Positions 20,868 to 58,373 of a stretch of DNA of 64,000 bases are shown here, piece by piece; the stretch's first letter is position 1, and each line of letters begins with the position of its first letter. The stretch is from assembly GCA_044356325.1 (NCBI GenBank), contig JBIKWJ010000003.1:36749-100748 (forward strand). The letters are read 5' to 3'. This stretch comes from Minisyncoccia bacterium. GTDB lineage: Bacteria > Patescibacteriota > Minisyncoccia > SW-4-49-11. Both the position numbers and the translations under genes were made by a program. The notes below the pieces were generated by a model. The model made no database searches, was not told the origin of the DNA, and saw only the letters and a list, made by a program, of their open reading frames with translations.

Positions 20868-20972
20868 TTGTCCCCCTTCGGAGGGGGCCGCCTGAAAGGC
20901 GGGGGTGGATAAAATATAAACTTGAAGTCTATCCTCCTCCGCCCTGCGGGCACCTCCCCCAAGGGAGGACAA
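20868..20972. repeat. GC-rich mosaic hairpin repeat block R1
   Basis: CCCCCTTCGGAGGGGG, GCCGCCTGAAAGGCGG and CCTCCCCCAAGGGAGGAC modules shared with other blocks. Confidence 0.7.
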
Positions 20973-24424: not shown

Positions 24425-24722
24425 TCTGTCCACACCCACCGCAAAGCAGTCCCCCCTTCCACCTACGGTCGACAAGCTGCCGGCGAGGCCTGCCTGCGGT
24501 AGGCAGGGAGAGTTTTGAGGGCTTTCACTTCTAGCCCCCTTCGTAGGGGGGGCTTTCAGTCACCTGTATTTTGTACTAAATTCCCCTCTCTCCCTACGGG
24601 AGATAAATTGAGGGAGGTGGCCAGGCTTTGCCTGACGGGGTGGAGTAGTTTGCACTTTGCTCTTGCCCTTCTGTCCTCCCTTGGGGGAGGTGGCACGGAG
24701 TACTGGGTGTGGACTGTATTTT
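24425..24722. repeat. GC-rich mosaic hairpin repeat block R2
   Basis: Contains modules A, B, C, D and F shared with R3-R13. Confidence 0.75.
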
Positions 24723-24745: not shown

Positions 24746-25816
24746 TCACCCAATACTTTGAAAATAATTATTCACAGCAAATTCATATTGCTCCATGAAT
24801 ATCTTTTTAAAATAAGTAATATTATTAGTCTCATAAAATAATATACTAGCCTTTTTATACTCAGCCTCAGAAACCCCTCTATAAGACAACGGGGTATAAT
24901 CACAAGCAATCAACATAGCATTAGATACAAGTCTAGCAGTCCTTTTATTCCCATCCTCAAAACCCTGTATATATGACAATAAAATCAAGCTAAAAAATGC
25001 CTTCTCAAACACATTAGAAGTCCCATTCACCAATTTCACCATAGACTTTATAGCCTCCTCAATATGAAACATATTATCTATTGGCCTATAATTAGTTCCC
25101 ACAATCCCCACTGGAGACTTTCTCAAATTATGAGTAATATTCAAATTTTTAACCAAAATCTGATGAGCTTTTTCAATAAAAGCCTGCTTCAAAACTTTAA
25201 AACTCTTTTTATGAGCTATCACAAAATCAAAAGCCTCCTTATGATTAAGGATCATTTGAGTCTCCTCCTGACTTTTACCAACCGCACTTTGATGATTTAC
25301 AATCAAAGACTCCGTATCCAAAAGAGAATAAGTGTTTCCCTCAATCTGAGAAGATTTCCACGCAAACTCAATAATTATCCTTTCAAACTCCTTATGCTTA
25401 ATCACATCACTATCTATACCCTCAAGATTACTAACAAAAGTATTATGCAAACCCTCCAAATAACTCATTTCCTCCTCCGTAAAAACTGAAGTCTCCGCCA
25501 AAAGTTTAAAAACATCAAAATTAAATTTACTATTAACTAACCTCTCATCCTGAGGAATAACAAAATACTCCTCTACATCTATAGGCCTCAAAAGAGCATA
25601 GCCGGGAGCCAAATTATACTCCACACCTCGCCCAGCACCAGTCTGCATCAAATATCCAAGCTCACATAATAATTGCAAATCCCTGACAATAGTCACGCGA
25701 GACACCTCCTCAGCCAAAAATTCCATTATATCCAAAACCGCCCCACTACTATGAGACTCAAAAAACTCTATAATTCTAAGTTGGCGAACATTAAGACCAA
25801 TATTATTCTGCTTCAT
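24746..25816 (-). CDS. Fic-family protein with N-terminal wHTH and a degenerate active-site motif
   Basis: Fic-fold region with QGFEDGNKRTAR in place of canonical HPFx(D/E)GNGRxxR. N-terminal HTH-like segment. Confidence 0.55.
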   Translation of the reverse strand: MKQNNIGLNVRQLRIIEFFESHSSGAVLDIMEFLAEEVSRVTIVRDLQLLCELGYLMQTGAGRGVEYNLAPGYALLRPIDVEEYFVIPQDERLVNSKFNFDVFKLLAETSVFTEEEMSYLEGLHNTFVSNLEGIDSDVIKHKEFERIIIEFAWKSSQIEGNTYSLLDTESLIVNHQSAVGKSQEETQMILNHKEAFDFVIAHKKSFKVLKQAFIEKAHQILVKNLNITHNLRKSPVGIVGTNYRPIDNMFHIEEAIKSMVKLVNGTSNVFEKAFFSLILLSYIQGFEDGNKRTARLVSNAMLIACDYTPLSYRGVSEAEYKKASILFYETNNITYFKKIFMEQYEFAVNNYFQSIG

Positions 25817-25896
25817 ATAAAATATATTAAATCATTAATTCAATCTAATTGTATCATAAATGATACAATTAAGCAATCGCAATGATACAATTAAAT

Positions 25897-26160
25897 CCAG
25901 CACTCCCTCCACTTCGTAGAGGCGACCTTTCAGTCACCTGTATTTTGTACTAAACTCCCCTCTCTCCCTACGGGTTTACCTCCCGTAGGGGTGGAGATAA
26001 ATTAAGGGAGGTGGCAGGGCGGTCCCTCCCATACTTTAAGTTTGGGAGGGGACGGAGGAGGACTTTTCAGACGGCGGAATGAGGACAAAAACCCCCTACT
26101 CCCCCACAGAATCACTATCTATCTTAGAGCGACTCCCCTGTTTTCGCTGACGATAAAAAG
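25897..26160. repeat. GC-rich mosaic hairpin repeat block R3
   Basis: Modules F and E. The 70-bp module E is identical to 28258-28335. Confidence 0.75.
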
Positions 26161-26236
26161 TATAGCCAAGGTAGCTAATATATATATAATTACAATTTCC
26201 TATGATATAATATAAAGACCATATTTACAAAATACT

Positions 26237-26674
26237 ATGAACAAAAATATTAAAAAATTTATAAAAAGATTTCAGGAATGGTTCATAATAAAACCAAACC
26301 TAGACATCTCAGAACACAAACCTCCCTTCTTTTCTGAAAGAGATATTTGGTGGTGTCGTTTAGGGGAGAATATAGGGATTGAAATAAGTGGCAAAGGTCG
26401 AGAGTTTGCTAGACCAGTAATAGTATTGAAGAAATTTTCACAAAGATTACTTTTAATAATACCAACTACAACAAAACTTACATTTTCTAATGGAACAGAA
26501 AAAGAGGGAGAAAGATTTATAAAATTTATTTATAATGACATTGTAATGTTAGCTTGCTTAGAACAAGTTAGAACTATAGACTATAGAAGATTAAAAAACA
26601 AATTAGGTCAATTAGATAAAAAAGATTTCAACTTGATACACACATCTTTTCAAAACTTATTTATAAAAAAATAA
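26237..26674 (+). CDS. PemK/MazF-like toxin fold protein
   Basis: RDIWWCRLGENIGIEISGKGREFARPVIVLKK...LLIIPTTTK matches the MazF/PemK core (W..dl.p..G.E..g.RP.lVl...vv.Pit). Confidence 0.5.
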   Translation: MNKNIKKFIKRFQEWFIIKPNLDISEHKPPFFSERDIWWCRLGENIGIEISGKGREFARPVIVLKKFSQRLLLIIPTTTKLTFSNGTEKEGERFIKFIYNDIVMLACLEQVRTIDYRRLKNKLGQLDKKDFNLIHTSFQNLFIKK

Positions 26675-26837
26675 GCCCTCTTGCGAGGGGCGCGGCTAGT
26701 GCCGAATACAATAGTAATATATACCAAAACTTTACATTTGTCAAGTCAAAATTTTCTGTCCCCTACTTCTTTATTTTCACAGTATTATGCTCTTTTGACT
26801 TAGAATGTTTTTTCTTCTGTCCTTCGTTGGTGAGTAT

Positions 26838-27012
26838 GGACTGAGATTTTTGTTCTCCATTCCCCTCTTGAGGGGTGGACAGCTTCGCTGGACGGGGTGG
26901 AGTATTTTGTCCTCCCTCACTAGCACTCTGTCCCTCGCTGGCAGCTTGTCGACCGTAGGTGGAAGGGTGGCACGGAGTGCCGGGTGTGGACTGAGCTTTA
27001 TTCCCCCTCTTC
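26838..27012. repeat. GC-rich mosaic hairpin repeat block R4
   Basis: Modules C, B and A in order. Confidence 0.75.
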
Positions 27013-27030
27013 CTAACCCAATAAAACCCA

Positions 27031-27094
27031 AGATACCCTAGACATAGAATCAAGGTAGTGCCCGAGATAATAATACCAAGATAAAAAATATGAT
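27031..27094 (+). repeat. 64-bp direct repeat, copy 1 (duplicate of the 3' end of the 28272..30518 gene)
   Basis: About 60/64 identical to 28345..28407. Encodes an ...ILCLGYLG... TM segment on the minus strand. Confidence 0.7.
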
Positions 27095-27126
27095 ATAATT
27101 AGTACTATATTCCAAAAATAAATATT

Positions 27127-27768
27127 ATGACTTATATTTTTTTAGATGAGAGTGGAGATTTAGGTTTTAACCTAAATAAAAGTGGGACAAGTGAAAACTT
27201 CATTATTACATTCTTTGTAATAAAAAATAAAAAGCCCTTTGATAATATTGTAAAGAAAACTCTTGCCAAAATGAATAAAGTAGAAAGAAAGTCTATACAA
27301 GGTGTTTTGCATTCTTATAAACTATTACCTAGAAGGAGAAAGAAGTTATTAAAATCTATATTAGAATATGATTTCAAGTTGATGGTAATAAGGTTAAATA
27401 AATCCAAAGTATACACACATTTACATAATGAAAAGCAGGTAGTTTACAATTATATAACCAATATATTACTAAATAGAATATTAGATAAAAAACTAATAGA
27501 CACTGATCAAAAAGTTCATCTTATAGCATCAAGAAGAGAAACAAATAAATTTCTAAATTCAAATTTTAAAAATTACTTAAAGAATAAAGCTCAAAAAAAC
27601 CATTCTATTGATATAGATATAAATATTGCATTATCCAATCAGGAAAAGTGTTTACAGATAGTAGATCTGATAAGCTGGTCATATTTCAGACACATAGAAC
27701 ACAAAGATAGTAGCTACTACAATATAATCAAAGAGATGATGGAAGAAGAAGTAATTTTGTTCCAATAA
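27127..27768 (+). CDS. DUF3800-family protein
   Basis: N-terminal IFLDESGDLGF is the DUF3800 hallmark. 213 aa. Confidence 0.55.
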   Translation: MTYIFLDESGDLGFNLNKSGTSENFIITFFVIKNKKPFDNIVKKTLAKMNKVERKSIQGVLHSYKLLPRRRKKLLKSILEYDFKLMVIRLNKSKVYTHLHNEKQVVYNYITNILLNRILDKKLIDTDQKVHLIASRRETNKFLNSNFKNYLKNKAQKNHSIDIDINIALSNQEKCLQIVDLISWSYFRHIEHKDSSYYNIIKEMMEEEVILFQ

Positions 27769-27924: not shown

Positions 27925-28336
27925 TCTGTCCTTTATGTCTGTCCCTGCCTACCGTAGGTATGGCCTCCCTACTCACCTGTCCTCCCTTTTTTAATCCACC
28001 TTGGGTGGAGGGGGTGCCTGCAAGGCAGGGGTGGATGTATTTTGCAATTTGAGCTTTTGTCTCCCTTAGGAGGCTTTCGTCCCTCCTATATTTATTTAGG
28101 AGGGGGAGTACCCGCAGGGGGAGGGTGGATCAAACTCAAAATAAAATACTAAAATAATAACTGAGTTATAAAATTACAATTATCCACCTCCGGCACTCCG
28201 TGCCACCTCCTCCAACTACCTACGGATTTACCTCCCGTAGGGATGGAGTTAAAAAGGAGGACAAAAACCCCCTACTCCCCCACAGAATCACTATCTATCT
28301 TAGAGCGACTCCCCTGTTTTCGCTGACGATAAAAGG
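27925..28336. repeat. GC-rich mosaic hairpin repeat block R5
   Basis: Modules B, D, H and A, ending in the 70-bp module E. Confidence 0.75.
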
Positions 28337-33416: not shown

Positions 33417-33742
33417 TCCCCTGAGGGAGGGGGTGAGAGCAGTCCACACCCGGCACTTTGTGACACCCTTCCACCTACGGTCGACAAGCTGCCAGCGAGG
33501 CCTGCCTGCGGTAGGCAGAGACAAAAAATACCATCCACCCCGTCAGACATAGCCTGCCACCCCTCAAGAGGGGAATTTTTAGGGCAAGTTGCAAATTACA
33601 TCCACCCTCCCCCGTCGCAAATGGGATTTGCTCCTGTCCTCCTCCGTCACCTACGGTGACACCTCCCCCAAGGGAGGACAAGAGTGCAAGTTGCAAAATT
33701 AAATACAGGCGACTGAAAGGTCGCCCCTACGAGAAAGTAGGA
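33417..33742. repeat. GC-rich mosaic hairpin repeat block R6
   Basis: Modules A, B, C, D and F. Confidence 0.75.
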
Positions 33743-33760: not shown

Positions 33761-34777
33761 TTAAAAATTTATATTGGATAATCTTTTTATAATAGCTTCT
33801 TCGCTAGGTAGATATTTTGCATATTCTTTGGGGAGATTTTCGTATTTGTTATAGGTGGCTACTCCGATTGGATCTTTGGCTTGTTCTAGCATATATTCTA
33901 CTTCTGTTCTGTTTTTGTCTTTGCAGATTACGATGCCGATGGTGCGATTGTGTTGTTCTTGTTTGACTTGTTTGTTGATTAGTTGCATATACATTTGGAC
34001 TTGCCCCATATCTTTGGGTTGAAATTCTCTTGCCTTGAGTTCGAAGACTATATAGCAGTTGAGTTTGAAATTAAAAAACAAAAGATCTATAAAATACTCT
34101 TTTTCTTCTATGGTTAGTCTGTATTGTCTACCTACAAATGCGAAGCTCCCTCCCATATCTGCTAGAAAATTGACGACATTGGTGACTATGGTGTTTTCTA
34201 TTTCCTTCTCGCTAAATGGTTGGTCGGGGCTGATTAGCTCTATATTATAATCATCTACAAACTCCCAAGCGACTTGGGCTTTGAGTGTGTCTAGGATGGT
34301 GGTGTTGAAATTGTTCTGAGCTAGGGCTTGATTTTCGAAATGGTGAGATTTTATTTTATCTATTAGGTCTAGTTTTGACCAGCCCATTTGTTTGGTCTTT
34401 TTGAGGTAGTATTCTTTTTGAATATCGTCTTTACATTTTTCAAAAATAAGTTTGTTTTGTATCCAGCCAATTTCTCGCACCAGTGGAGCGAGTTTTTTAT
34501 TATCTTTGTATGTTTCATAAAAAGTTTTCATTCTCCATAGATTGGATGCTGAAAAACCTTTAATTCCTGGGAATTCTCTTTGTAAATCTTTGGATAATTG
34601 TTCTACTATGGATTTCCCCCATCCTTGATCTTGCATTTGCTGGCTGACTGATTTTCCTATTTCCCAATATAATTCTACTGTCTGTTTGCTGACTGTTTTG
34701 AGCATTTCATATCTGGCTGATTGGATTTTGGTTAGAATTTGCTCTAAAAATGGTTGGTATTGGGTGATTTGTGTCAT
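33761..34777 (-). CDS. YhcG-family (DUF1016) PD-(D/E)XK nuclease
   Basis: N-terminal ELYWEIGKSV and C-terminal IDLLFFNFKLNCYIVFELKAREFQPKDMGQVQMYM (PDDEXK core) are typical of DUF1016/YhcG. Confidence 0.7.
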   Translation of the reverse strand: MTQITQYQPFLEQILTKIQSARYEMLKTVSKQTVELYWEIGKSVSQQMQDQGWGKSIVEQLSKDLQREFPGIKGFSASNLWRMKTFYETYKDNKKLAPLVREIGWIQNKLIFEKCKDDIQKEYYLKKTKQMGWSKLDLIDKIKSHHFENQALAQNNFNTTILDTLKAQVAWEFVDDYNIELISPDQPFSEKEIENTIVTNVVNFLADMGGSFAFVGRQYRLTIEEKEYFIDLLFFNFKLNCYIVFELKAREFQPKDMGQVQMYMQLINKQVKQEQHNRTIGIVICKDKNRTEVEYMLEQAKDPIGVATYNKYENLPKEYAKYLPSEEAIIKRLSNINF

Positions 34778-34840: not shown

Positions 34841-35030
34841 CATCCACCCTCCCCCTTCGGGTACTCCCTCCTAAGGGAGACAAAAGCTCAAGTAACAAAA
34901 TCCACCCCGTCCAGCGAAGCTGTCCACCCCTCAAGAGGGGAATTTAGTACAAAATACAGTCCTCCTCCGTCACCTACGGTGACACCTCCCCCAAGGGAGG
35001 ACAGAAGGGAAGAAGCTCAGTCCACCCTAT
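34841..35030. repeat. GC-rich mosaic hairpin repeat block R7
   Basis: Modules C and D. Confidence 0.75.
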
Positions 35031-38095: not shown

Positions 38096-38320
38096 CTGTC
38101 CACACCCACCACTAACGTGGTTCCCCCTCGCCAGCGAGGGACAAAAAGCTTTGTCCTCCCTTGGGGGAGGTGCCTGCAAGGCGGAGGAGGATATACCTTA
38201 CCAGCTACCTCCTCCGTCGCAAACAGGATTTGCTCCTGTGAAACCTCACGGTTTCCCAAACCTTCCTACACGGGAAAACTCCCGTTTTCCCGACCCCTTT
38301 CCCGGAGGCAGAAGCTTACC
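38096..38320. repeat. GC-rich mosaic hairpin repeat block R9
   Basis: Modules A, D and G, plus the gcttaccagctaccgcctccg module that extends into the 3' end of the DUF2207 gene. Confidence 0.7.
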
Positions 38321-46648: not shown

Positions 46649-46745
46649 ACAAACCGGACGCCTTGTCCTGGGAAACCCTCGGTTTCCCAACCTTCCAACA
46701 CAGGAAACTCCCGTTTCCCGACCCCTTCCCTACTGGTTCGATTAA
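46649..46745. repeat. GC-rich repeat block R11 (module G)
   Basis: GGTTTCCCAACCTTCCAACACAGGAAACTCCCGTTTCCCGACCCC is nearly identical to 38250-38300. Confidence 0.7.
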
Positions 46746-46761
46746 TAATACAAAGGCCATG

Positions 46762-46834
46762 TGGACCGTACTGGGATCGAACCAGCGACCTCTTCCATGC
46801 CATGGAAGCGCGCTACCAACTGCGCCAACGGCCC
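46762..46834 (-). tRNA. tRNA-Ala (anticodon GGC)
   Basis: Cloverleaf folded by hand from the reverse complement. G3:U70 Ala identity pair. Anticodon loop AUGGCAU. No encoded CCA. Confidence 0.85.
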
Positions 46835-47304: not shown

Positions 47305-47366
47305 TTCTATTGACATTTTTTTCATTTCGGTTCATACTTAATATATACTAAATAAATATTAAATAT

Positions 47367-48203
47367 ATGGTTTCTTTCAAATTACACAATGGTTTTGATC
47401 GGCTTAAGATGTATAATGGATTGATGGGGGCTCTCCACTTCTTCCAAGCTGGATTAATGTTATATATTTCTAAAGAATATTTACTACCTGTATTTACCCA
47501 TTATCTCAAATTTGATGCTGCAAATCGTAGCGCTATACCTATGCCAGTAGAAGAAAAGTTATTTGATGTAAATGTTGGACCAGCTGTTGCTTTATTCTTA
47601 TTATTATCAGCATTAGCCCATTTTATTACAATTTTACCTAATGTGTATCCTTGGTATATCAAAAATCTCAAGAAGCATATTAATGTGATCAGATGGTATG
47701 AATATGCTCTATCATCATCAATAATGATTGTAATAATAGGATTGTTGGTTGGTATTTATGACTTCTCTACTCTCTTATTACTCTTTGGACTTAATGCCGC
47801 TATGAATCTTTTTGGTCTTGTGATGGAGCAAATCAATCAAGATAGAAAAGATGTTAATTGGCTTCCATATATATTTGGATGTATTGCAGGTATAATCCCT
47901 TGGATTGTTATTTTCCTTCATTTCCAAGGAGCTCTTGCTAATGTCGATGTAGATGTGCCAAGTTTTGTATATTGGATTGTATTCTCATTATTTGCAGTAT
48001 TCAATGTATTTGCTATTAATATGTTCCTTCAATACAAAAAAGTTGGGCCTTGGAAATCATATGTGTTCGGAGAGAAAATCTATGTTTTCCTATCCCTATT
48101 TGCTAAAACATTATTAGCTTGGCAGGTATGGTCAGGAACTCTTAGAGGTCGTGAGAATGACGTATCATCTGCTATTAATCATATTATTAACTTAATTTCA
48201 TAA
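47367..48203 (+). CDS. Heliorhodopsin (seven-TM retinal protein, inverted topology)
   Basis: Diagnostic motifs IRWYEYALSSSIMIV, FGCIAGIIPWIV, VPSFVYWIVFSLF and FLSLFAKTLLAWQVWSGTL (Schiff-base Lys). These closely parallel heliorhodopsin 48C12 as recalled from memory. 278 aa. Confidence 0.8.
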   Translation: MVSFKLHNGFDRLKMYNGLMGALHFFQAGLMLYISKEYLLPVFTHYLKFDAANRSAIPMPVEEKLFDVNVGPAVALFLLLSALAHFITILPNVYPWYIKNLKKHINVIRWYEYALSSSIMIVIIGLLVGIYDFSTLLLLFGLNAAMNLFGLVMEQINQDRKDVNWLPYIFGCIAGIIPWIVIFLHFQGALANVDVDVPSFVYWIVFSLFAVFNVFAINMFLQYKKVGPWKSYVFGEKIYVFLSLFAKTLLAWQVWSGTLRGRENDVSSAINHIINLIS

Positions 48204-48226
48204 TTTCAAAGAGAAATTAAAGTACT

Positions 48227-48256
48227 AAAAAAGCTCCGATTACTCGGAGCTTTTTT
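48227..48256. terminator. Bidirectional rho-independent terminator
   Basis: AAAAAAGCTCCG-attact-CGGAGCTTTTTT. Confidence 0.7.
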
Positions 48257-48268
48257 AGTATCGAGGAC

Positions 48269-48520
48269 TTATTCTCGAGGCTTAGCAGGTTGAATAGAGA
48301 TTTCTCTTTCTAGAAGAGATGCTCCATCTAACTGTTGAATTGCTCGCTCAGCTTCTTCTTCTGTGGCAAATTCGACGAAACCGTAACCTTTGCTACGTCC
48401 CTCTTCTTTGTCAAAGATGATTTTTGCTGATATTACAGTTCCAACAGTCTCAAAAAGAGATTGTAAGTCCTGGTTTGTTGCTTTGTACGCAATATTTCGT
48501 ACAAATAGATTCTTGCTCAT
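48269..48520 (-). CDS. RRM-domain RNA-binding protein
   Basis: RNP-2 LFVRNI and RNP-1 KGYGFVEF. Confidence 0.75.
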   Translation of the reverse strand: MSKNLFVRNIAYKATNQDLQSLFETVGTVISAKIIFDKEEGRSKGYGFVEFATEEEAERAIQQLDGASLLEREISIQPAKPRE

Positions 48521-51079: not shown

Positions 51080-51169
51080 ATAATTTTATGACCTATTGGT
51101 ATTATTATATCATAAAAACATGATATTTAGAATTGTATGTATGGTTTATTTCTGCAAAGTGAGCTTTTT

Positions 51170-51360
51170 GTCCTCCTTCGGAGGAGCTTTAAGTCCCTCC
51201 TATATTTATTTAGGAGGGGGTGGCATGGAGTGCCGGAGGTGGATGTCCGTAGAGTCGGCGACCCCGCCGACATTGGTTTCGTAGAGGCGACCTCTCAGTC
51301 CCTGCATTATCGTAGCGGAGGGTTTATCCCTCCACACGCAACCAATTCCGCTAATTACCC
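51170..51360. repeat. GC-rich mosaic hairpin repeat block R12
   Basis: Modules H, A and F. Confidence 0.7.
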
Positions 51361-51843
51361 TTGACAAAATTAGAGAAATGTGCTATATATCAAACGTTCC
51401 TATCGAGAATCATTATGAGCACTGAATTGGTTGAAATTACTCTTTTGATGAGGCAATCTTTCTTTGACCTTCTATCGTTTATTGAAGAAACGTATGGCCA
51501 GCCAAGAGAAGAAGCAATTCATGGATCTGTAGGTCTTTATGCCCGAAATAGAATTGAATCAAAAAAAGGAAATCGGTTAGCTTCAATACGCCATAATAAT
51601 ACTATTGTGAGAGCATATGAAGAGATTCAGAGTAATAACCTCACCCAATTAATTGAACTTAGACTTTGTGTACATGAATCTTTTGCTGAGGCGCTACAAT
51701 TGCTTGCATATAATGATAGAAAAACAAGGCCAGAAATACTACATAAATCTGTAAACCTATATGCAGAATATATGGCTGATTTAAAAAAAGGATATAGATT
51801 AGCTTCAATAAGATCTGATAATTCTATTGAAACAATCTATTAA
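51361..51843 (+). CDS. Hypothetical protein with two tandem repeats of about 62 aa (possible tandem ribbon-helix-helix)
   Basis: The repeats ELVEITLLMRQSFFDLL...GNRLASIRHNN and QLIELRLCVHESFAEAL...GYRLASIRSDN are clearly homologous. The real start may be the internal Met (MSTELV...). Confidence 0.4.
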   Translation: MTKLEKCAIYQTFLSRIIMSTELVEITLLMRQSFFDLLSFIEETYGQPREEAIHGSVGLYARNRIESKKGNRLASIRHNNTIVRAYEEIQSNNLTQLIELRLCVHESFAEALQLLAYNDRKTRPEILHKSVNLYAEYMADLKKGYRLASIRSDNSIETIY

Positions 51844-51936: not shown

Positions 51937-52298
51937 TAGTGAGGGGGCGTGGAGTTCTGTCTCCCTTTGGAGGGAGTACCCGTAGGGGGAGGGTGGATTT
52001 GTTTTTAACATATTAAATAATTAAAACTCTATCCACCTCCGACCTGACGGCCACCTCCTCCAAAGGAGGACATGATAGAATTAGAACCCTCCGCTACAAA
52101 ATACCGTCCTCCTCCGTCACCTTCGGTGCCACCTCCCCCACCTGTCTGCCATAGGTAGAAGGTAGGACAGTATTTCTGTCCCTGCCTGCCGTAGGCACGG
52201 CCTCGCTGGCGAGGGTGCCCGCAGGGTGGGTGTGGACTGAGCTTAGATTCCCCTCTTGAGGGGTATCAGGCTTACCTGACGGGGTGGAGGTAATTTTT
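51937..52298. repeat. GC-rich mosaic hairpin repeat block R13
   Basis: Modules H, D, B, A and C. Abuts the hisS stop codon. Confidence 0.75.
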
Positions 52299-56169: not shown

Positions 56170-56901
56170 ATGTTTAACTTTTCTAAGACCAATAAGAACC
56201 CCGAGGGACTTATTAGATTTTATTCTTTAGAGAGTTTTTGGTTACAGAGTTTTTCACAAGAAGAAAAAGTATATATTGCAGAAACCTATCAACCGATAGG
56301 AACAAATAAAAAAGAGTCGCTTATAAAAGGATCTATTCTGGATTCAAGCCAGACAGCATCAATGTTTCTCTCAACATTAGCAGGTTGGTTTGATAATCCA
56401 AGAGATAGAAGTATAGCTGTAAGGCTTATTAGAAAATCTATAGACCTAGCTAAAGAAGGGGGTGAAAATTCATATATAGATTTAGATTATGCATTATCCT
56501 CGGCAATAACTATTCTATATAAATTAAGAGATGATGAAAAAATATTAGAAGAGGTAATTAACTTATGTTATTCTCAAATTTCAATCGCTAAAGACGTTTT
56601 CCCAAAACTATTAGTATTTTTCAATCCTCCCTATAATAAAAATGACTTTGATCCGAACACAAAAGTTTGGCATTCAAAAAGACAAGAGTATGTTTTGTGG
56701 AAAGACTACAATGAAGTAGCCGTAGATAAAATAATTCCAGGACATACAGGCTATACTCAATTAGTAATTATCTTAAAGAAACAGAAAAAATATAGCGAGA
56801 TAATTAATTTATGTGAACGGGCTAAAAAAGAGGGTTGGTCGGGTGATTGGGATAAAAGAATAGAATTTGCTAAAAAGCAATTAAACAAATTAAATAAGTA
56901 A
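56170..56901 (+). CDS. Hypothetical protein
   Basis: 243-aa ORF downstream of the 32-bp repeat copy 1. Confidence 0.4.
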   Translation: MFNFSKTNKNPEGLIRFYSLESFWLQSFSQEEKVYIAETYQPIGTNKKESLIKGSILDSSQTASMFLSTLAGWFDNPRDRSIAVRLIRKSIDLAKEGGENSYIDLDYALSSAITILYKLRDDEKILEEVINLCYSQISIAKDVFPKLLVFFNPPYNKNDFDPNTKVWHSKRQEYVLWKDYNEVAVDKIIPGHTGYTQLVIILKKQKKYSEIINLCERAKKEGWSGDWDKRIEFAKKQLNKLNK

Positions 56902-57192
56902 TCCGTTATAAGAAAGTGGTGGGGGGAAGGAAAAGTCAAGGAACAAAGGCACCACTTTAGAGTTTGGAAGGTTTAGAGATAGAATCTTATCAAATTCATC
57001 TCGCTTATTTTTGTATGCACTTTCGTCAAAGCTGTATTTTTTTATAATCTTAAAAGCTTTTCTAGCACAATAATCCTCTAGACGCTTAACCTGAGCGGGT
57101 AAAGAATTACCAGCTTCCCTTTGCTCTTCAGTTGATACTCGTGCTAATATTATTGCTTTCATAGTTTTAAAATATTGTTTGTAGACGTTCAA
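56890..57192 (-). pseudogene. Truncated serine recombinase (resolvase catalytic-domain N-terminal fragment)
   Basis: MKAIILARVSTEEQ...SLPAQ..RLEDYC matches a serine-recombinase N-terminus with the catalytic Ser. The frame collapses after about 75 aa and the HTH/DNA-binding domain is missing. Confidence 0.5.
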
Positions 57193-57278
57193 CTAGAGAC
57201 AATTTAATTTGTAGACGTTTAAATCTATTTTAACCTCTACAAATAGATTTGTCTATGTTTTAACATTCACAATTTTAT

Positions 57279-58373
57279 TTACCCTGTAATAGATATTAAC
57301 TCAGGAAATACATATAAACTAGGTTTACTACCTTTACCCTTTCTTAAAAGTTTAATTATTTTAGCTTCTTCTAATTTCTGAATTACCTGACGAGAATAAG
57401 GAGGCCTTACATTAGTTTTTTGTGAAAATTGAGTAGAAGTAAAATAGGGATAAGAAAAGAGAAAATCAAGAATATCAACAGCATATTGAGATTTCGTAAC
57501 GTTTCGTATCTCCTCTTTTTTTTCTCCATATAAAAACATAATATCTTTTGCCTTTTCAATGTTTAGTTCTGACTGCTCCTTAACAGCTTTTAAAAAATAG
57601 ATGATCCAAGAATCCCAATCACCATTAGATGATATCGCGTTTAATTTAGAGTAATAAACTTCTCTATCTTTTTCAAAATATGCACTCAAATAAAACATTG
57701 GTGTCGAAAGAACTTGCTTATAATGAAGAAATAGGGGGAGTATAATTCTACCTAAACGACCATTACCATCCCCAAAAGGATGAATAATTTCAAATTGAGC
57801 ATGTATGATAGCAAGTTGTACAAGAGGATCTTTTTCTTGGGAGTGAATATATGTCTCAAGATTTGCCATTAAGTCATTTATATCCTGAGGTGCAGGAGGT
57901 ACATAACTAGCTTCTTCAATTGTTGTTCCATCACTACCTATAAAAACTTGCCAATCTCTATACTTTCCAATTACTTTAGTTTGAGACCTTACTTCACTAA
58001 GAAGAATCTTATGGATTTCTTTTAATAGTCTTCCTGTTAAAGGAGTTTCTTTCATTTTCTCTATAGCAAAATACATAGATTTCCTATAGTTTAGAACTTC
58101 AAGAATATCTGCTTTTTTTTCATCCATTTCCATCGGATCTGCTTCATATTCAAGAACTTCTTCAAGAGTAGCTTGTGTTCCTTCAATCTTAGAAGATATC
58201 ACAGCTTCTTGAGTGGTTAATGGAGCCAGCAATACACTCGGATTAGGTATCCCTTGTAACAAACCATCAAATTTTGAAAGCCTATCTCTCGCATCACCAA
58301 TTAATGAGATATATTTTACCCAATCAAGATTTTCTAAAGGTAACGTTTTAGGTACAAATGGAGTTTTAGACAT
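57279..58373 (-). CDS. Fic-family protein (canonical AMPylation motif) with C-terminal wHTH
   Basis: HPFGDGNGRLGR motif. 364 aa. Confidence 0.8.
   Translation of the reverse strand: MSKTPFVPKTLPLENLDWVKYISLIGDARDRLSKFDGLLQGIPNPSVLLAPLTTQEAVISSKIEGTQATLEEVLEYEADPMEMDEKKADILEVLNYRKSMYFAIEKMKETPLTGRLLKEIHKILLSEVRSQTKVIGKYRDWQVFIGSDGTTIEEASYVPPAPQDINDLMANLETYIHSQEKDPLVQLAIIHAQFEIIHPFGDGNGRLGRIILPLFLHYKQVLSTPMFYLSAYFEKDREVYYSKLNAISSNGDWDSWIIYFLKAVKEQSELNIEKAKDIMFLYGEKKEEIRNVTKSQYAVDILDFLFSYPYFTSTQFSQKTNVRPPYSRQVIQKLEEAKIIKLLRKGKGSKPSLYVFPELISITG

Follow-up and report, generated by a model that had tools for sequence, protein, structure and literature searches.

The function of heliorhodopsins (HeRs), retinal-binding light-sensor membrane proteins, is debated, and a genome of 0.9 Mb with very few genes narrows the search for their partners. 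One such HeR gene lies on the forward strand of a 64,000-nucleotide stretch of DNA (hereafter the window) from a Minisyncoccia bacterium (contig JBIKWJ010000003.1 of assembly GCA_044356325.1, positions 36,749 to 100,748), where a first-pass annotation had recognised a HeR open reading frame (ORF) of 278 aa. To judge from its sequence and modelled structure, the product is a genuine, intact and canonical HeR. With good confidence, it is read here as a functional, subfamily-1-like (TaHeR-like) HeR of freshwater Paceibacteria that would bind scavenged retinal, transport no ions and have a sensory or regulatory role.

Identity, functional residues and a C-terminal extension

The ORF proposed in the first-pass annotation was borne out by its coordinates (Table 1), by Pfam and by the predicted fold. 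A Pfam search of the 278-aa protein returned PF18761 (Heliorhodopsin) at 313.3 bits (E=1.2e-93, against a cut-off of 26.7 bits), spanning profile positions 1–242 of 242, and a sequence search of the PDB matched heliorhodopsins exclusively: TaHeR (6is6, E=1.9e-73), 48C12 (6su3, E=6.6e-58), the TaHeR E108D mutant (7clj) and the eukaryotic Cv06 (9vfc). An AlphaFold2 model, computed from a 45-sequence alignment (pLDDT 85.4, pTM 0.81), has seven long transmembrane (TM) helices and, in the first extracellular (AB) loop, the beta-hairpin typical of HeRs (strands 39–46 and 61–69). Foldseek superposed this model on TaHeR with a TM-score of 0.94, a root-mean-square deviation of 1.6–1.9 Å and 48–49 % identity, and on 48C12 with a TM-score of ~0.90 and 42–43 % identity.

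There is next to no chance that a type-1 rhodopsin or an unrelated seven-TM protein has been mistaken for a HeR. Nothing favours this beyond the common architecture of seven helices plus a lysine, and the Pfam, PDB sequence and Foldseek comparisons already refute it: Bac_rhodopsin (PF01036) gave no match to the protein in the Pfam search at E<=0.01, and the best type-1 structures reached E-values of at least 3.6e-3, with TM-scores of ~0.45–0.64 and 7–16 % identity, as opposed to 0.94 and 49 % for TaHeR. Four residues ahead of the TM7 lysine the protein has Ser and not Asp, that is SxxxK, a motif used as a HeR criterion (PMC9166423), in place of the type-1 DxxxK. A shorter reading from M15, the 264-aa JGI call P0003, was also rejected, as residues 9–14 align with TaHeR and 48C12; the N-terminal pattern M-x-x-F-[KR]-x-H-N-G-[FY]-x-R, conserved in the clade of close relatives described below and in its sisters, likewise counts against the shorter form.

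Alignment to 48C12 and TaHeR, the check that the first-pass annotation had itself suggested, upheld both the HeR identity and the key residues, and none of the outcomes that it had named as fatal (a lysine outside TM7, missing key residues, a type-1 or unrelated seven-TM protein) was found. The TM7 Schiff-base lysine to which it had drawn attention is K247, located mid-helix, aligned with 48C12 K241 and TaHeR K238 and invariant across the 45 homologs, with S243 in the column of 48C12 S237. The counter-ion Glu that it had placed in RWYEYALSSS is E112, which aligns with TaHeR E108 and 48C12 E107, the column at which the TaHeR mutant 7clj precisely differs.

The residues listed for 48C12 by Kovalev 2020 (PMC7049168), which cover the water cavity as well as the Schiff-base and Glu149 regions, were mapped by HMMER alignment and checked programmatically. 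Conserved from 48C12 to the present protein are N16 (N17), H23 (H24), Q26 (Q27), S76 (S81), H80 (H85), Y92 (Y97), N101 (N106), R104 (R109), W105 (W110), E107 (E112), Y108 (Y113), S111 (S116), E149 (E154), P172 (P178), F206 (F212), Q216 (Q222), Y226 (Y232), E230 (E236), S237 (S243), K241 (K247) and W246 (W252). The one exception is 48C12 Q213, replaced by Met219, a common variant that also occurs in TaHeR. Sixty-seven alignment columns are invariant among the 45 homologs (52–93 % identity), and these cover most of the listed residues. The Glu counter-ion, the Ser residues, the His pair and the polar Schiff-base cavity are thus all present (E112, S81, S116, H24, H85, N17, N106, Y97, Y113, R109 and E236), as is the fenestration or carotenoid-site motif, formed by Y168, C172, G175, F212, N213 and A216 (in 48C12 numbering, opposed aromatics 162 and 206, small residues 166 and 210, Gly169 and Asn207). 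The Glu reported to be essential to transport in the viral V2HeR3, E191 in TM6, is absent: the equivalent position, I199 in TaHeR and L202 in 48C12, is Leu208.

Purifying selection on the gene is strong: the ratio of nonsynonymous to synonymous substitution rates (dN/dS) is 0.09–0.14 against eight relatives (dS up to 1.6). The distribution of charge favours the inverted topology of HeRs, with a cytoplasmic N-terminus: eight Lys and Arg residues lie in the short loops on the predicted cytoplasmic side (BC, DE and FG) and none in those on the predicted extracellular side (CD and EF), which fits the positive-inside rule.

Of the characterised proteins, TaHeR (Thermoplasmatales archaeon SG8-52-1; PDB 6IS6, 7CLJ, 7U55) shares the counter-ion Glu, the Schiff-base Lys and the His pair, Met at the position of 48C12 Q213, Asn at that of 48C12 I142, and a host without a retinal pathway (PMC9296517). 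It differs in having F172 and A200 where the present protein has I176 and F209 (bulky and 48C12-like, at two positions to which a tightening of the fenestration is ascribed), in lacking the C-terminal extension described next, and in its archaeal rather than CPR (candidate phyla radiation) bacterial host. The freshwater actinobacterial 48C12 (PDB 6SU3, 6SU4, 6UH3) has the same polar residues of Kovalev 2020 bar Q213M and comes from the same type of habitat, whereas the present protein departs from it in Q213M, I142N, Y179H, S242T, L227V, the extra tail and the sequence of the AB loop. V2HeR3 (Emiliania huxleyi virus 202), which transports protons, has family membership and the counter-ion Glu in common with the present HeR, but carries E191 where Leu208 stands here (PMC9448325), and its viral subfamily is without the fenestration motif (bioRxiv 10.1101/2025.11.27.691015).

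A lineage-specific part of the protein is a C-terminal tail of 17–19 residues past TM7, found in 11/11 aligned members of the clade (77–96 % identity) and absent from the 34/34 other HeRs of the same alignment (A1), including the 72 % and 62 % identical sisters; those 34 terminate in RP or a comparable stub of one to three residues. The tail follows the pattern RG-x-EN-x-VS-x-x-I-x-x-[IV]-x-x-[LI]-x-S, which has amphipathic periodicity, and AlphaFold2 weakly predicts an amphipathic helix over residues 263–277 (pLDDT 58–70). Given the topology of HeRs, the tail would be extracellular. Bulzu 2021 (PMC8612252), who examined N- and C-terminal extensions and loops of more than 50 aa in HeRs, described ten N-terminal variants and no C-terminal one.

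Host lineage and retinal supply

Among ~6,000 homologs found, the protein belongs to a tight group of 77–96 % identity, all others being at most 72 % identical, and two members of the group are labelled Candidatus Parcubacteria. In the species-representative set, two genomes come closest at 94 %, a 'Candidatus Paceibacteria' metagenome-assembled genome (MAG) from Lake Mendota and, with the gene on a 425-kb contig, the 'Parcubacteria group' MAG ZE-Oct18-75 from Lake Zurich; a 'Paceibacterota' MAG comes next at 88 %. The following genome match is at 62 %, and those after it, at 47–57 %, are in Chloroflexota, Saccharibacteria, Dojkabacteria and Thermoplasmatales. The clade is at most 62 % identical to HeRs beyond itself and a sister branch, to which it is 72 % identical. 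ZE-Oct18-75 is classified as Patescibacteria; Paceibacteria; o__SW-4-49-11, with 0.79 Mb assembled, an estimated size of 0.90 Mb and 34.2 % GC (Chiriac 2022 supplement, PMC9166423). These values, and a GC content of 0.26–0.42 across the window (2-kb windows), agree with the small AT-rich genome surmised at first pass. On this sequence evidence the host is assigned to a freshwater Paceibacteria (CPR) lineage of order SW-4-49-11, of ~0.9 Mb and 34 % GC. As its closest genomes are Paceibacteria/Parcubacteria MAGs, it falls within a monoderm-type group; HeRs have been described as confined to monoderms, with Patescibacteria among the HeR-bearing phyla (Bulzu 2021, PMC8612252).

That CPR bacteria carry HeRs and are presumed retinal auxotrophs has already been published (PMC9166423; PMC8612252; PMC9296517). 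Chiriac 2022 (PMC9166423) counted 98 HeRs in 1,326 CPR genomes, for the most part in Saccharimonadia, and its text names Saccharimonadia, Dojkabacteria, ABY1, Microgenomatia, Kazan-3B-28, UBA1384, CPR2 and CPR3; Paceibacteria are not on that list. Literature searches turned up no HeR described from Paceibacteria/Parcubacteria; the only rhodopsins found reported for Paceibacteria are schizorhodopsins, in another order, and one proton-pumping rhodopsin (PMC9166423 for the latter). The published CPR HeRs of Chiriac 2022 and Bulzu 2021 resemble the present one in family, SxxxK motif, monoderm-type host group and freshwater setting, and differ in the motif itself, which is SLFAK in this clade and commonly SLVAK, SLIAK or SFVAK elsewhere. 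Chiriac 2022's own MAG ZE-Oct18-75 carries the 94 %-identical gene noted above, and proteins of 93–96 % identity are public as 'hypothetical protein', those of 93–94 % in MAGs. The first-pass identification was thus correct yet less novel than it might appear, because CPR HeRs were published and proteins of 93–94 % identity were public.

The earlier observation that the window holds no retinal biosynthesis (blh/crt) genes was sustained: among its ~60 proteins, Pfam annotation revealed no SQS_PSY/phytoene synthase, CrtI-type amino oxidase, lycopene cyclase, Blh/BCD or RPE65. This annotation combined dedicated scans with a precomputed Pfam table for 37–58 kb, and precomputed matches on a further 19 kb were equally devoid of such genes, bringing the total to 83 kb of the 109-kb parent contig. 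In that JGI metagenome contig (Ga0335038_0000027, 109,319 bp, sample 3300037508) the window occupies positions 26906..90905. Since crt/blh genes are missing from the window and from these 83 kb, scavenged retinal is the likely chromophore. The accessible part of the supplement of PMC9166423 contains no carotenoid or retinal entries. There are precedents for scavenging: rhodopsin-bearing Saccharibacteria without blh bind external retinal within 30 s (Jaffe 2022, PMC9296517), and TaHeR, whose host has no retinal pathway, is cited as taking up retinal rapidly via an opening in the apoprotein (PMC9296517). In boreal lakes, blh is carried mostly by Nanopelagicales Actinobacteria (PMC9296517).

Genomic setting

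Features of the locus are collected in Table 1. The HeR gene most likely forms its own transcription unit, because a promoter-like element, itself conserved, precedes it and a terminator-like hairpin follows. The −35 hexamer of the former is invariant, and the AT-rich leader conserved, in six clade loci whose spacers to the upstream gene measure anywhere from 62 to ~230 nt, the differences in length arising from insertions of GC-rich palindromes. The element is kept in the 72 % sister locus (L094) and in a clade locus with a 1.4-kb insertion upstream of the HeR gene (L103). The leader itself (47339–47366), TA(T/C)TAAATAAA(T/C)A(T/C)TAAATAT before the ATG, is nearly invariant across the clade (equivalents compared in L005, L006, L010–L012, L094 and L103). 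It contains no purine run resembling a Shine-Dalgarno sequence, and neither does the region before the upstream gene, which may reflect Shine-Dalgarno-independent initiation in the lineage or a regulatory element. Twenty bases past the HeR stop lies the terminator-like hairpin, common to the HeR gene and the convergent gene beyond it. An operon with the upstream gene was rejected as the principal interpretation, given the −35/−10 element belonging to the HeR gene, the 62–230-nt spacer and the gene inserted in the 1.4 kb of L103.

Table 1. Positions of the heliorhodopsin gene, its coding landmarks and surrounding features (window coordinates)
Feature	Position	Strand	Evidence or remark
tRNA-Ala(GGC)	46761..46834	-	ARAGORN and Rfam; upstream of the LiaF-like gene; same tRNA in 7 clade loci
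LiaF-TM/LiaI-like small membrane protein, 122 aa	46936..47304	+	PF22570, 48 bits; PF18917 (LiaI-LiaF-like_TM1), 41 bits
Promoter-like element, TTGACA-17-CATACT	47310..47338	+	Best-scoring site of the scan, 10/12 matches
Heliorhodopsin coding sequence	47367..48203	+	ATG start, 278 aa; seven predicted TM helices, AB-loop beta-hairpin, clade-specific C-terminal tail
Coding stretch for RWYEY	47691..47705	+	Translation
Codon of E112, putative Schiff-base counter-ion	47700..47702	+	TM3 (RWYEY); aligns with 48C12 E107, TaHeR E108
Coding stretch for SLFAKT	48093..48110	+	Translation
Codon of K247, putative retinal Schiff-base lysine	48105..48107	+	S243-L-F-A-K247, mid-TM7, predicted helix 232–259
Clade-specific C-terminal extension, residues 260–278 (RGRENDVSSAINHIINLIS)	48144..48200	+	Alignment A1; AlphaFold2
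Bidirectional intrinsic-terminator-like hairpin	48223..48260		A-tract, GCTCCGA stem, T-tract; 17-pair stem
RRM_1 RNA-binding protein, 83 aa, convergent downstream	48269..48520	-	PF00076, 82.8 bits
GC-rich palindromes	20953–20968, 24675–24690, 28069–28103, 33662–33677, 34985–35000, 38155–38170, 51172–51217, 51317–51333, 52054–52069		

Both neighbours described at first pass, a small K/E-tailed membrane protein upstream and an RRM protein downstream, were confirmed by the ORFs and by Pfam (LiaF-TM at 48 and RRM_1 at 83 bits). In the clade, the block runs tRNA-Ala / LiaF-TM-like (+) / HeR (+) / RRM (−) / class-I aldolase (−) / phosphoglycerate-mutase-like (−) / ExoIII (−) and is syntenic in all loci long enough to show it, with lineage-specific insertions in the flanks. 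Neither LiaF nor RRM is among the published classes of HeR neighbours (Bulzu 2021, PMC8612252; Shim 2024), and none of the ten published classes is adjacent to this HeR. An alpha/beta hydrolase does occur in the window, ~3.4 kb from the HeR gene on the opposite strand, and a peroxiredoxin 5.4 kb away, also on the other strand, which is not evidence of linkage.

The upstream protein has four predicted TM helices and a K/E-rich tail, which from its charge distribution would be cytoplasmic, and its gene is constrained (dN/dS 0.15–0.46). A LiaF-TM domain is present, but the C-terminal LiaF-like_C (DUF2154) domain is not, nor is there a liaSR pair nearby, and for these reasons it is named LiaF-TM/LiaI-like instead of LiaF. 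Its homologs are narrowly distributed: a search of a 5.8-billion-protein database with the 122-aa protein found 11 clusters, all from the HeR-bearing clade, and a metagenome scan with a five-sequence alignment retrieved only clade members. Around ~80 distant HeR loci, a first, narrow hidden Markov model (HMM) found no LiaF-TM-like gene outside the clade, and a broadened one placed a LiaF-TM gene within 6 kb of the HeR in two (L009 and L015, of Dojkabacteria and Saccharibacteria), which is not clearly above expectation. A general association of HeRs with LiaF was therefore rejected, on the strength of these 2/~80 distant loci and of the confinement of homologs to the clade. In the sister L094, which has a 72 %-identical HeR, a 240-aa LiaF-like gene with a LiaF-TM domain and a weak LiaF-like_C match lies 77 nt upstream, its product being collinear with the 122-aa protein in the TM domain, where the two are 32 % identical (E=7e-12). 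The upstream flank of that locus is entirely different, with a divergent CheY-like single-domain response regulator and type II secretion/type IV pilus genes (T2SSE ATPase, T2SSF platform protein); positions 1–3037 of L094 might be taken as a possible hint of a link from light to the pilus, seen at one locus only. In L103, the gene inserted between the LiaF-like and HeR genes (857–2023) encodes a 388-aa HopA1 effector-family protein (PF17914, 26 bits against a cut-off of 22.7) and is accompanied by GC-rich palindromes; an effector-like gene in a putative episymbiont is perhaps of interest in its own right.

The RRM gene adjoins the HeR gene in 17/18 clade loci, the exception being L103, whose contig ends within the HeR gene. 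The adjacency annotated at first pass stands, with the addition that the gene is convergent and behind a terminator, so that it is not expected to be co-transcribed with the HeR gene. Beyond the clade, a profile search placed an RRM gene near the HeR in 1/~80 distant loci, and there 3 kb off. The RRM protein was accordingly rejected as a functional partner, being convergent behind a bidirectional terminator and near the HeR in only that one locus outside the clade.

Elsewhere in the AT-rich window, the GC-rich palindromes form a scattered family of short elements (CCTCCCCCAAGGGAGG, CCTCCCTTGGGGGAGG, CCTCCTATATTTATTTAGGAGG; 10 matches against 0.19 expected) that also occur in the L005 and L006 spacers and at 2030–2075 of L103; the copies examined are intergenic, and they look like repeats of the REP/MITE type (repetitive extragenic palindromes or miniature inverted-repeat transposable elements) or terminators. 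The GC-rich patch at ~51150–51350, which outdoes its shuffles in folding (z ~−3), is a cluster of them. On the minus strand, 3′ of the tRNA-Ala, a GC-rich non-coding insert of ~110 nt (46650–46760) separates the tRNA from a histidine-phosphatase gene; the insert has no credible Rfam match and folds no better than shuffles (z −0.65), and L010 has no room for it, the tRNA there abutting the phosphatase gene. Structured RNAs at ~46650–46760 and 51150–51350 were rejected, given no credible Rfam matches, the z of −0.65 and the palindrome cluster.

Genes of mobile or defence type at 24746–27768, 33761–34777 and 56890–58373 encode two Fic-domain proteins, a MazF/PemK toxin, a DUF3800 protein, a YhcG PDDEXK nuclease and a resolvase fragment, and the GC minimum of the window (0.257, at 30–32 kb) coincides with a glycosyltransferase/methyltransferase cluster. 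The ORF at 51361–51843 (160 aa, or 142 aa in the JGI call) has no Pfam match and shows an internal duplication (...HGSVGLYARNRIESKKGNRLASIRHNNTI... / ...HKSVNLYAEYMADLKKGYRLASIRSDNSI...), spotted by eye in the translation. Beyond the window, the same contig (L097, 13745–14548; L096, 12482–20178) has genes for a protein of the aldehyde-decarbonylase family (PF11266), a SOUL haem-binding protein, subunits of a V/A-type ATPase, a P-type cation ATPase, a TMEM175-like channel and a HisKA_7TM histidine kinase. The kinase gene overlaps positions 1–342 of the window with its first ~114 codons, on the minus strand. Most of these genes, from the PF11266 protein to the kinase, are unexpected for a CPR genome of 0.9 Mb, and none is linked to the HeR.

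Possible roles of the heliorhodopsin

A sensory or regulatory role appears most likely, because the Glu that is the hallmark of ion-transporting viral HeRs is absent. As envisaged here, the HeR would insert with its N-terminus inside, and all-trans-retinal, which the cell would not make itself, would be taken up from a host or the community through the fenestration. Light would then move no ions, in keeping with Leu208 at the E191 position. It would instead populate a long-lived photoproduct, and in this state the HeR would signal to a partner protein or modulate it; the four-helix LiaF-TM-like neighbour is the sole candidate partner at the locus. An alternative output would be the oxidative-stress sensing proposed for monoderms and CPR bacteria (PMC9166423; PMC8612252). 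The pairs AbHeR and glutamine synthetase, TfHeR and photolyase, and OcHeR and the ABC exporter OmrDE involve the same family and probably a similar principle, in which a light-dependent change of a non-transporting HeR acts on another protein; unlike them, the present HeR has as its only conserved same-strand neighbour a LiaF-TM-like gene, outside the published classes. Several points weigh against this picture. Retinal binding, absorption, photocycle, topology and the lack of transport are all extrapolated from homologous proteins; none of the known partner classes (glutamine synthetase, photolyase, ABC exporter, glutaredoxin, histidine kinase) adjoins the gene, the nearest histidine kinase, HisKA_7TM, being ~47 kb away; and because the 83 kb searched amount to only ~9 % of the ~0.9-Mb genome, the genome-wide absence of retinal genes is inferred rather than shown. 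In addition, a preprint (bioRxiv 10.1101/2025.11.27.691015) views HeRs as light-harvesting two-antenna proteins, and the motif that it requires is present here.

This last view belongs to a broader alternative, in which the HeR would transduce energy or transport ions, as a proton channel or pump like V2HeR3 or as a light harvester with a carotenoid antenna. Some HeRs do move protons (PMC9448325), the V/A-type ATPase encoded on the contig could exploit a proton gradient, and the 'two-antenna' motif, which 91 % of HeRs share according to the preprint, is complete (the fenestration residues Y168 to A216 listed above). The antenna proposal, though, rests on one preprint, with docking instead of measured energy transfer (bioRxiv 10.1101/2025.11.27.691015), while Leu208 corresponds to a residue that is hydrophobic in the non-transporting TaHeR and 48C12 too, the nearest characterised proteins, which have a hydrophobic extracellular half and are reported not to transport (PMC7049168; PMC9448325). 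Transport or light harvesting is consequently improbable. Equally at odds with a sensory role would be a chromophore-less relic, or a protein with a light-independent structural function, in a cell that cannot make retinal. The lack of retinal and carotenoid genes from the 83 kb and the strong reduction of CPR genomes (PMC9166423) would suit this, yet a dN/dS of ~0.1, the conservation of the retinal-pocket and Schiff-base residues (most of them invariant in the 45 homologs) and that of the promoter and terminator would not, and make it highly improbable. Nor does the environment fit a relic: the habitat is a sunlit lake with abundant blh-carrying Actinobacteria, and the TaHeR host, also without a pathway, has a HeR that rapidly binds external retinal (PMC9296517).

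A different question is whether the HeR and the LiaF-TM-like protein constitute a dedicated membrane module of photoreceptor and transducer or anchor, the signal being relayed by the charged tail or, in the sister, by the LiaF-like C-domain. The two genes stand side by side in the same orientation in the 17 clade loci that allow both to be examined; the full LiaF-like gene 77 nt upstream in the 72 % sister, whose upstream flank is different, points to more than inherited synteny; and in one Dojkabacteria locus a LiaF-like gene follows the HeR gene at 0.5 kb, on the same strand. The restriction of detectable homologs to the HeR-bearing lineage and the constraint on the 122-aa protein point the same way. 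Against this, the 2/~80 distant loci are not clearly above background, the nearest 62 % relative has no LiaF-TM gene, the spacer of 62–230 nt contains GC-rich hairpins, a conserved promoter serves the HeR gene separately, and L103 tolerates a 388-aa HopA1-like gene between the pair. The neighbour also evolves much faster than the HeR (43–48 % against 82–88 % identity) and has lost its C-domain. The data would be just as well accounted for by inherited synteny and a single upstream rearrangement, so that a dedicated module is considered unlikely. A bolder version, drawing on L094 with its full LiaF-like partner beside a CheY-like response regulator and type-IV-pilus genes, would have the HeR remodelled into a lineage-specific photosensory module, in which the extracellular C-terminal amphipathic helix and a co-inherited LiaF-TM-like partner couple light, or host-derived retinal or xanthophyll captured on the side facing outwards, to the envelope or pilus behaviour of an ultra-small episymbiont; this is a long shot.

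The reading of a canonical, retinal-scavenging HeR with a sensory or regulatory role leaves the current view of HeRs and of CPR biology unchanged and would not surprise a specialist. The locus adds a Paceibacteria clade (order SW-4-49-11) to the inventory of CPR HeRs, and the C-terminal tail and the LiaF-TM-like neighbour appear, as far as the literature showed, to be new lineage-specific traits, both of them minor, that offer two concrete experimental handles. A HeR so conserved and so strongly constrained argues for a role that is worthwhile to the cell even when its chromophore has to be scavenged.

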